From: Dictyostelium discoideum
Taxonomy: Eukaryota
Direction of reading: 5' to 3'
Assembly (NCBI GenBank): GCA_000004695.1
Contig: CM000153.2
Span: forward strand, 5,184,001 to 5,248,000
Length of the DNA stretch: 64,000 nt
Numbering within the stretch: the first letter of the stretch is position 1; the number at the start of each line of letters is the position of its first letter. Under the pieces are notes generated by a model. That model had not been told where the DNA came from. It did no database searches and saw only the letters and a list, made by a program, of their open reading frames with translations. Positions 13,882 through 15,603 of this stretch are shown one piece after another. The position numbers and the translations under genes were made by a program.

Positions 13882-15603
13882 TTAATGATGTTTTTTTTCT
13901 TTTAAATTAACATCAAAAGCTTTTTTAAAACCTTCATAAACAATAAAAGTTATTGAATGAGATGGAATTGATTTCATAAAGGAAGGTACTATACCTTTAT
14001 AAAGACCGATTGGACCTTCTTTTTTAATGATTTTAGTTAAACCATCGAATAGGCCAGTGTATTTCTCTTGATTGACAGAACTACCTTGAGTGATTAATCT
14101 AGATTTAACAACATGGAATGGATAACCAACCAATTGACCACAAACACTACTAGTTGAAGCACAAACTAATAATTGTCCAGCTGTTGGGAATTCATTACCT
14201 GTCATTTTAATAACTTTATGTTTAAGGAATTCATAGACCATCATGTTGACGCCCGAATGGGGAATGGTTGCTGTAATTGAGGCACCTAAACCTCTATAGA
14301 ATGGTCTAATTGATTTCTCTGAAATTGCAATCTTTTTAAAACAATCGAAAATACCATTATAGGTTCCTGCTATCTCTGCTGATAATCTTAATCTTACAAC
14401 TTCAAGTGGAAATAATGTTGTATGAGAAACAACACCTGCAACTGAACCGCTAATAAATCTTTGTGCTGATGTTAGTTCACAATCATTTTCTGCAAATAAT
14501 TTCTTTACATATTCATATGTACCAAATTTAACTGCACTCTCTGGACTAACTTTAATAATATTTGCCAAGTTACCTCTATTTTTTTTAATTATTTATTAAT
14601 TAAATTAATTTATATATTTTTTTTTTTTCCACATTTTAAATATATTCAAAAAAAAAAAAATACTAACCTAAAGAAACCTTTAATTCCACCATCTTTATAA
14701 CATGCTTTAAAAGCTGAAATTAAAGAAATTGGTTTACCATGATTTAATTGACACATAATTTTAACTCTTTCTAATGGTGCAGTTGATGTACGACTTGCAA
14801 AACCTGCAACTGAACCAGCTATTTTTTAATTTTATTTTATTTTTTTTTTTTAAAAAAATTTATATAAATTAATATCACTTTTTATTTTATTATTTATTAT
14901 TTTTTAGTATTTCAAAAATTTTAAAAAATATTTACCTAACATATACTTTTCATTTTTCAATTATTTAAATTTTATTAAAAAAAAAAAATATTAATATTAA
15001 TTTATTTAATTTATTTTTTTATTTTTAATTTATAATTACAGTAATCGTATTTCTTAATGATGAAGCTTTTTCTTTTTTTTCAACCATTGGTGGAATGAAA
15101 CCACCATTATCAAAACCTGCATCTAAAATTTGAGAATCTTTCCAAAATGAAATTATTAATTGAAGATTTGAATTTGGTAATAAAACCAATAATTCTCTCC
15201 ATTCATTAAAATCGATTTGATTATCACGATTTTTATCAATACGATGGAATAATCTAATTAATTCTTGTTCACTATAGAGTGGAATATTTAACTTTTTAAT
15301 TGATTCTTCAATTTCATGGATATCCAATGTTCCAGATTTGTTTGTATCTAATTCTTCAAATACAATTTTTAATTTCTTTATATTTTCAATTGTAAAATCT
15401 TCAAATTCCTTAAAACTAACTGATCCATCTTTATCTTTATCAACATTTGTTAAAAAACTTTCAATATCTTTCTCGGAGGATGGAATTCTTAATTTAAAAA
15501 AACCTTCTTTAATTTCTTCCCTTGTTAATTTACCATTATTGTCTTTATCTAAAGAGTCAAATAATTTTTTAACAAATTCTTTATCATTTTCATTTAATAC
15601 CAT
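13882..15603 (-). CDS. calcium-binding mitochondrial carrier (SCaMC / ATP-Mg/Pi carrier type, SLC25 family) with N-terminal EF-hands
   Basis: Exon 1, 15603..~15040: four EF-hand loops (DKDNNGKLTREE, DKDKDGSVSFKEF, DTNKSGTLDIHE, DKNRDNQIDFNEW). Candidate micro-exon ~14936..14945 (TATATGTTAG). Exon 3, ~14667..14819: [24 protein letters not shown], the first Mito_carr signature. Exon 4, ~14585..13882: RGNLANIIKVSPESAVKF...two further carrier repeats with PLEVVRLRL / PFHVVKSRL. Aligns to human SLC25A24 ([28 protein letters not shown]...). Confidence 0.8.
14936..14945 (-). other. candidate 10-nt micro-exon (TATATGTTAG) of the SCaMC carrier gene
   Basis: The exon 1 donor (ACT|GTAATT, phase 0) and the acceptor of the carrier exon (AATAG|CTGGTTCAG, which needs phase 1) are not phase-compatible. 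An internal segment AAAAG|TATATGTTAG|GTAAAT has a proper acceptor and a GTAAAT donor. It restores the frame and yields ...[20 protein letters not shown], matching the conserved (L)LAGG motif of SCaMC proteins. Confidence 0.5.

Follow-up and report, generated by a model that had tools for sequence, protein, structure and literature searches.

The closest described relatives of the gene discussed here belong to the SLC25 family, whose structural archetype is bovine AAC1, and within which human SCaMC-1 (SLC25A24, also known as APC1) combines an N-terminal domain of four EF-hands with three Mito_carr repeats. The same arrangement is seen in the product of mcfC, a gene of Dictyostelium discoideum found on the minus strand of a stretch of 64,000 nucleotides (nt) of contig CM000153.2 (assembly GCA_000004695.1, positions 5,184,001 to 5,248,000), which we refer to as the window. 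Here we consider a 10-nt segment of mcfC, TATATGTTAG at window positions 14945..14936, which an earlier note on the bare sequence had put forward as a candidate micro-exon between the EF-hand and carrier-domain exons, and which we hold with high confidence to be a constitutive internal coding exon of this gene for a putatively EF-hand-regulated mitochondrial carrier of SCaMC/SLC25A24 type. The exon is already present in the public reference annotation (RefSeq, UniProt), where it is correct and not new; what is contributed beyond the reference gene model is support from comparison between species, together with a probable origin for the micro-exon.

The mcfC gene is divided into four exons, all of them read from the minus strand of the window. 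Exon 1 (15603..15040; 564 nt, 188 codons, with its ATG at 15603-15601) codes for the four EF-hands and a linker and ends in phase 0 at ACT|GTAATT, and reading through this donor meets a stop codon 12 nt further on. It is followed by intron 1 (15039..14946; 94 nt, GTAATT...GAAAAG, 4% GC, phase 0) and then by the micro-exon, in the context AAAAG|TATATGTTAG|GTAAAT, which codes for Tyr189, Met190, Leu191 and the first base of Ala192. Intron 2 (14935..14819; 117 nt, GTAAAT...AAATAG, 5% GC, phase 1) divides the Ala192 codon as G|CT. Exon 3 (14818..14668; 151 nt) is entered at AATAG|CTGGTTCAGTTGCAGG, and its opening, (.)CT GGT TCA GTT GCA GGT..., requires one upstream base before 14818, so that the phase 1 entry claimed in the earlier note is right; it codes for (A)...GFF(R), comprising helix H1 and the first PX[DE]XX[KR] signature. 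After intron 3 (14667..14576; 92 nt, GTTAGT...AAATAG, phase 2), exon 4 (14575..13882; 694 nt including the TAA stop) codes for the remainder of carrier repeat 1 and for repeats 2 and 3. The gap between exon 1 and the carrier exon thus measures 221 nt at 4-5% GC, and in the spliced gene the micro-exon is flanked by ...ACGATTACT / AATACGATTACT before it and CTGGTTCAGTTGCAGG / CTGGTTCAG... after it.

When the four exons are joined (564/10/151/694 nt) they give an open coding sequence of 1419 nt, and the predicted protein of 472 amino acids (aa) is identical over all 472 residues to McfC of D. discoideum AX4 (XP_001733022.1 / EDR41049.1 / UniProt B0G159, UniRef100_B0G159), named 'Mitochondrial substrate carrier family protein C'. 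Exact spliced threading places XP_001733022.1 on the window in one GT-AG way only, and because this sole threading passes through the 10-nt exon the reference model must contain it; the coordinates and phases originally proposed are accordingly those of the reference gene. Relatives of McfC at 90% identity or more are found in other D. discoideum isolates, D. citrinum and D. dimigraforme. A 159-aa junction-centred query matched the truncated D. purpureum model only and not mcfC's own cluster, a quirk of word-index sensitivity, and the wider search for relatives was made with the full-length protein. Our search of the literature on mcfC, Dictyostelium micro-exons and the carrier family found no paper on mcfC gene structure, its junctions or Dictyostelium micro-exons.

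The 10 nt are needed for the reading frame. They shift the phase from 0 to 1 and join ...NTIT | YML(A) | GSVAGF..., and if they are omitted the frame breaks after ...NTIT and continues as LVQLQVLQVVHQLHH to a stop after 15 codons. The acceptor (AG) and the donor (GT) of the segment are both canonical, and the intron to either side of it is long enough to be viable. When all frame-restoring, stop-free AG|exon|GT candidates in the 221-nt gap were counted exactly one was found, TATATGTTAG, and no other internal exon fits the gap; the frame restoration ascribed to AAAAG|TATATGTTAG|GTAAAT is therefore not only borne out but unique to it. An alternative would be that there is no micro-exon and that a single intron joins the EF-hand exon directly to the carrier exon through a cryptic donor or a non-canonical site. 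ACT|GTAATT had been described as the only GT donor at the end of exon 1, and this holds for its phase but not for 'only', since further GTs lie nearby at 15084 (phase 0, ATG|GTTGAA) and, in phase 1, at 15101, 15104 and 15116. The last three could keep the frame if spliced to the acceptor at 14819 (GTG|GTTTCA, ATG|GTGGTT and CAG|GTTTTG, respectively). All four are poor donor sequences, however, with none of the GTAA or GTAAGT type, and their use would delete 15-26 conserved codons; the phase 1 sites lie 62-77 nt or more inside conserved coding sequence. Enumeration of all frame-keeping GT..AG pairs for a one-intron join led to its rejection on these grounds, every such pair relying on a poor donor at least 62 nt inside conserved coding sequence. 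A direct join also cannot produce the reference protein, and it would lose the FIPP...NTIT-YM-x-A segment that is found in every orthologue.

The residues supplied by the micro-exon fall at a position that is well defined in related carriers. Pfam assigns McfC four EF-hand_1 stretches, two EF-hand_7 stretches (pairs) and three Mito_carr stretches (E=4.4e-69), the first of which covers residues 185-271 and so starts ahead of the micro-exon residues 189-192. In phmmer comparisons residues 12-179 match the N-terminal domain of human SCaMC-1 (4N5X, E=3.8e-23; 4ZCU, E=2.2e-22), while the carrier domain, residues 190-460, aligns with residues 11-295 of 1OKC (E=1.1e-27). The three carrier signatures read P206-L-E-R-V-K, P298-L-E-V-V-R and P394-F-H-V-V-K, the third being without its acidic residue; that position is His in McfC (PFHVVK) and Ala in human SCaMC-1 (PLALVR). 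The top non-amoebozoan matches, in a one-directional search, are SCaMC-1/SLC25A24 proteins at 36-38% identity over about 96% coverage, and the domain arrangement of McfC is the one expected of SCaMC/SLC25A24, the Ca2+-regulated ATP-Mg/Pi carriers. At the junction itself, YMLA of McfC aligns with QLLA of WWRQLLAGG in human SCaMC-1, and MLAGSVAG with LLAGGIAG, whereas the WW motif ahead of H1 in the human protein is replaced by T-I-T-Y. In bovine AAC1 (1OKC) M190-L-A-G-S-V-A-G aligns with F11-L-A-G-G-V-A-A of helix H1, so that the proposal that Y-M-L-(A) recreates an LLAGG-like start of the first repeat agrees with both LLAGG of SCaMC-1 and FLAGG of AAC1. The micro-exon residues are thus predicted to open transmembrane helix H1. 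Alignment to SLC25A24/SCaMC orthologues, suggested in the earlier note as a check, gave the same result: every dictyostelid orthologue keeps Y/F-M-x-A(-G), which aligns with human SCaMC-1, and A192 is nearly invariant and G193 invariant across the multiple alignment.

To see how the junction is encoded elsewhere, the genomic loci of seven orthologues were examined, with each protein threaded onto its own DNA; the annotated protein of C. fasciculata could not be threaded with GT-AG introns of 40-900 nt, and its junction was read by frame translation. The same 10-nt exon is found in D. citrinum, between introns of 116 and 103 nt, and in D. dimigraforme, between introns of 73 and 235 nt. D. purpureum has a single intron, ACT|GTAAGT...74 nt...TATAG|TATATGATTGCTGGTTCA (TAT ATG ATT GCT GGT TCA), giving T|YMIAGS, and P. 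violaceum likewise has one, GTT|GTATGT...58 nt...TATAG|TAT ATG GGT. No intron interrupts this place in T. lacteum, H. album or C. fasciculata, where TYMAAG, SFMGAG and TYMGAG, respectively, are coded in one piece. The codon position of intron 1 is common to D. discoideum, D. citrinum, D. dimigraforme, D. purpureum and P. violaceum; in the last two the counterpart of the 10 nt is formed by the first 10 nt of the carrier exon, with the intron 1 position and phase matching, and among the species examined intron 2 is confined to D. discoideum, D. citrinum and D. dimigraforme. Judged from these sequences, the ten bases are coding in every species examined and only intron 2 is special to the D. discoideum group.

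Within that group the DNA around the exon has been kept while the introns have changed. A 21-nt block, AAAG|TATATGTTAG|GTAAATA (AAAGTATATGTTAGGTAAATA), is invariant in D. discoideum, D. citrinum and D. dimigraforme, the exon at 10/10 positions, the downstream donor at 6/6 and the upstream acceptor region at 4/6 (AAAG), and the 6-nt donor of intron 1 is invariant as well. In the intron interiors 35/82 positions (43%) are invariant for intron 1 and 32/105 (30%) for intron 2, and the lengths differ through large indels (94/116/73 nt for intron 1 and 117/103/235 nt for intron 2, in the same order of species). In D. dimigraforme (locus L002, about 2148-2382) intron 2 has reached its 235 nt by expansion of a long (ATT)n microsatellite, without any change in the micro-exon or in its splice sites. 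The direct join considered above would leave the invariant 21-nt block unexplained inside an 'intron', and D. purpureum and P. violaceum show TATATG to be coding; taken with the poor donors, this makes a one-intron structure very unlikely.

The D. purpureum locus (GL871042.1; L001 6001-7714) bears on a further explanation, namely that the gene is decaying or frameshifted, or that the EF-hand and carrier parts are separate genes, and that the 10-nt 'exon' is coincidental. There the annotation divides the mcfC orthologue between two neighbouring genes: the model of DICPUDRAFT_32589, an EF-hand protein of 210 aa, runs past the donor and into the intron, and DICPUDRAFT_32594, a carrier of 285 aa, begins with the Met of Y-M, which is a possible start for the carrier part. 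The pair is nevertheless joined in frame by the clean 74-nt GTAAGT..TATAG intron (L001 6780-6853), at AATACTCTTACT|TATATGATTGCTGG, and the merged model threads perfectly. Orthologues that are fused and full-length occur in four dictyostelids (P. violaceum, T. lacteum, C. fasciculata and H. album) as well as in Balamuthia and animals. The carrier exon of D. discoideum lacks a start codon context, and McfC has been reported as differentially expressed in cln3- cells (PMC7238602). Of the explanations considered, decay or two separate genes is the one we find hardest to credit, and the D. purpureum orthologue is best read as mis-annotated, a single gene split into two.

A different possibility is that the micro-exon is real but alternatively spliced, with skipping or retention of intron 1 yielding a truncated, EF-hand-only isoform that is regulatory or unproductive. 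Both truncated frames do exist, one of 188 aa plus 15 out-of-frame residues when the exon is skipped and one of 192 aa ending ...NTITVIIN when intron 1 is retained, and micro-exons are often alternative in animals. Alternative splicing is, however, rare in Dictyostelium, and there is no evidence of any isoform. Moreover, five other dictyostelids code the same residues within a larger exon, which argues that they are constitutively required for helix H1. We regard alternative inclusion as improbable, although less so than the direct join or the two-gene structure, and constitutive inclusion as probable because the exon codes for part of a transmembrane helix.

Several observations weigh against a constitutive micro-exon or limit the case for it. 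The geometry of the splice sites was assessed with 20,000 dinucleotide-preserving shuffles of the gap, of which 18.8% held at least one frame-restoring candidate and 6.1% held one with a GTAA donor; by itself such geometry is expected in about 6-19% of shuffled gaps, is only mildly unusual and is weak evidence. None of the shuffles (0/20,000) coded for a peptide of the form [YFW][ML][ILVMAG]A, and the significance of the micro-exon lies in its coding content together with its conservation across species rather than in geometry alone. At position +5 the donor of intron 1, GTAATT, does not agree with GTAAGT. For D. citrinum and D. dimigraforme the gene models may be projections of the AX4 protein, and for that reason the proteins of these two species do not count as independent evidence, although their DNA does. 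A spliced 22-mer across the junction had no matches in JGI metagenome contigs, and the sole Logan-derived member of the protein cluster (P0009) spans exon 4 alone; as it starts at TTG it probably derives from genomic DNA. Inclusion in mature messenger RNA is in this sense inferred, its one indirect support being that the exon is part of the reference annotation. Against these points stand the unique restoration of the frame, the identity to McfC and the coding use of the same ten bases throughout the dictyostelids examined.

How a 10-nt exon could be spliced at all is most easily pictured from the size of its introns. In short-intron organisms each intron is recognised across itself, known as intron definition, and the introns of 94 and 117 nt would presumably each be recognised separately in this way, so that a 10-nt exon needs no exon-definition machinery. 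Both introns would be spliced independently or sequentially, and removal one after the other is the more probable, since a 3' splice-site complex and a U1 complex would hardly fit together 10 nt apart. Once both were removed, the phase would have moved from 0 to 1 and the first residues of helix H1 would be supplied.

The distribution of the two introns suggests how the exon came about. In the accepted dictyostelid phylogeny P. violaceum stands next to group 4, and groups 3, 2 and 1 follow. Placed on this tree, intron 1 would be the older, since D. purpureum and P. violaceum have it too, and intron 2 would have been gained once, 10 nt downstream of intron 1, before D. discoideum, D. citrinum and D. 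dimigraforme separated, severing the micro-exon from the 5' end of the carrier exon. A second intron placed 10 nt behind an older one is thus the probable origin of the micro-exon; loss of intron 2 on several occasions in other lineages would be less parsimonious.

The orthologue of D. purpureum probably has a very small exon of its own. Its current model has an 'intron 1' of 170 nt that holds AAATAG|CAATAGAGATGG|GTATGT, a segment of 12 nt at L001 6144-6155, for which the predicted splice string is CTCTTTAGATAG|CAATAGAGATGG|TAAATTATCAAAAC and which lies just downstream of an intron that P. violaceum also has. When these 12 nt are read as exon, LD-SKLSKQEI becomes LDSNRDGKLSKQEI, and the EF-hand loop then has its canonical 12 residues, like the loops of the other species. 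For the N-terminus, Pfam EF-hand_1 then gives two stretches and 44.3 bits in place of one stretch and 24.6 bits, a score below the cut-off; the D. discoideum N-terminus is close to the higher value, at 41.0 bits. The corrected protein has 474 aa. The segment is a probable unannotated micro-exon in EF-hand 1, and the first EF-hand of D. purpureum, which seems defective in the current model, is probably intact, a point of modest practical value for annotating related species. The remark in the earlier note that exons of this size are routinely missed by gene predictors therefore fails for D. discoideum, where RefSeq and UniProt have the exon, and fits D. purpureum, where the junction is broken and the 12-nt micro-exon has likely been omitted. 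We consider the chances about even that a recent, lineage-specific intron gain made the D. discoideum micro-exon and that the 12-nt exon of D. purpureum was formed independently in a like manner, by a new intron placed 12 nt downstream of the one that P. violaceum also has.

Further features of the loci can be mentioned briefly. In D. dimigraforme (JBTAPM010000041.1; L002 2534-2585) the annotated intron 3 of 46 nt adds two residues, giving FFRKRGNLAN and a protein of 474 aa, while an acceptor 6 nt downstream (52 nt) gives the FFRGNLAN conserved in all other species, and the annotated model is probably a wrong choice between tandem acceptors by the predictor. Both D. dimigraforme (L002 1-855) and D. 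citrinum (locus L003, 1-792) have a gene with a Snf7 domain upstream of mcfC and on its strand; D. citrinum also has an actin gene, downstream of mcfC and on the other strand. In the D. discoideum window the composition around mcfC is about 22% GC with long A/T runs, typical of Dictyostelium. The intergenic sequence at 15604-15760 is nearly pure A/T and includes, directly upstream of the mcfC start codon, a run of about 50 A residues (minus strand) at 15641-15690, typical of Dictyostelium promoters but striking in its length. At 16230-16800 there are imperfect tandem-like repeats (...cactaattgaatcact.../...attgatgtcaacactaattga...) with GC above the surroundings, which look like a repetitive coding region of a neighbouring gene. 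No Rfam match was found over 13800-15750 at E<=1, and no snoRNA-like boxes were seen by eye in introns 1 and 2; the sole plus-strand open reading frame touching the gap is of 32 aa, of low complexity and mostly antisense to exon 3.

For D. discoideum itself these results are of little consequence, as the reference mcfC model already has the exon, and their value is confirmatory; what the comparison underlines is that without the 10 nt the whole carrier domain would be out of frame. mcfC offers a clean, small example of how a micro-exon can come about when a second intron appears within a few bases of one already there. If the origin proposed for both small exons were general, it would suggest that new introns preferentially arise beside existing ones in an AT-rich, intron-definition genome, and that dictyostelid annotations conceal a class of very small exons.

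Set beside the known systems, the exon–intron structure of human SCaMC-1 is unrelated to that of mcfC, and bovine AAC1, unlike the mcfC product, has no EF-hand domain, belongs to another substrate subfamily and shows no intron relationship. In gene structure the likeness is rather to animal and plant micro-exons, internal exons that measure up to about 30 nt, with which the mcfC exon shares its tiny size, its internal coding position and its canonical splice sites on both sides. As with these, it is easily missed by ab initio predictors and short-read aligners, and its length is not a multiple of three. It departs from them in lying between introns of only 94 and 117 nt, in an intron-definition genome, and in bearing no sign of tissue-regulated inclusion or of enhancer systems like that of SRRM4 in vertebrates.

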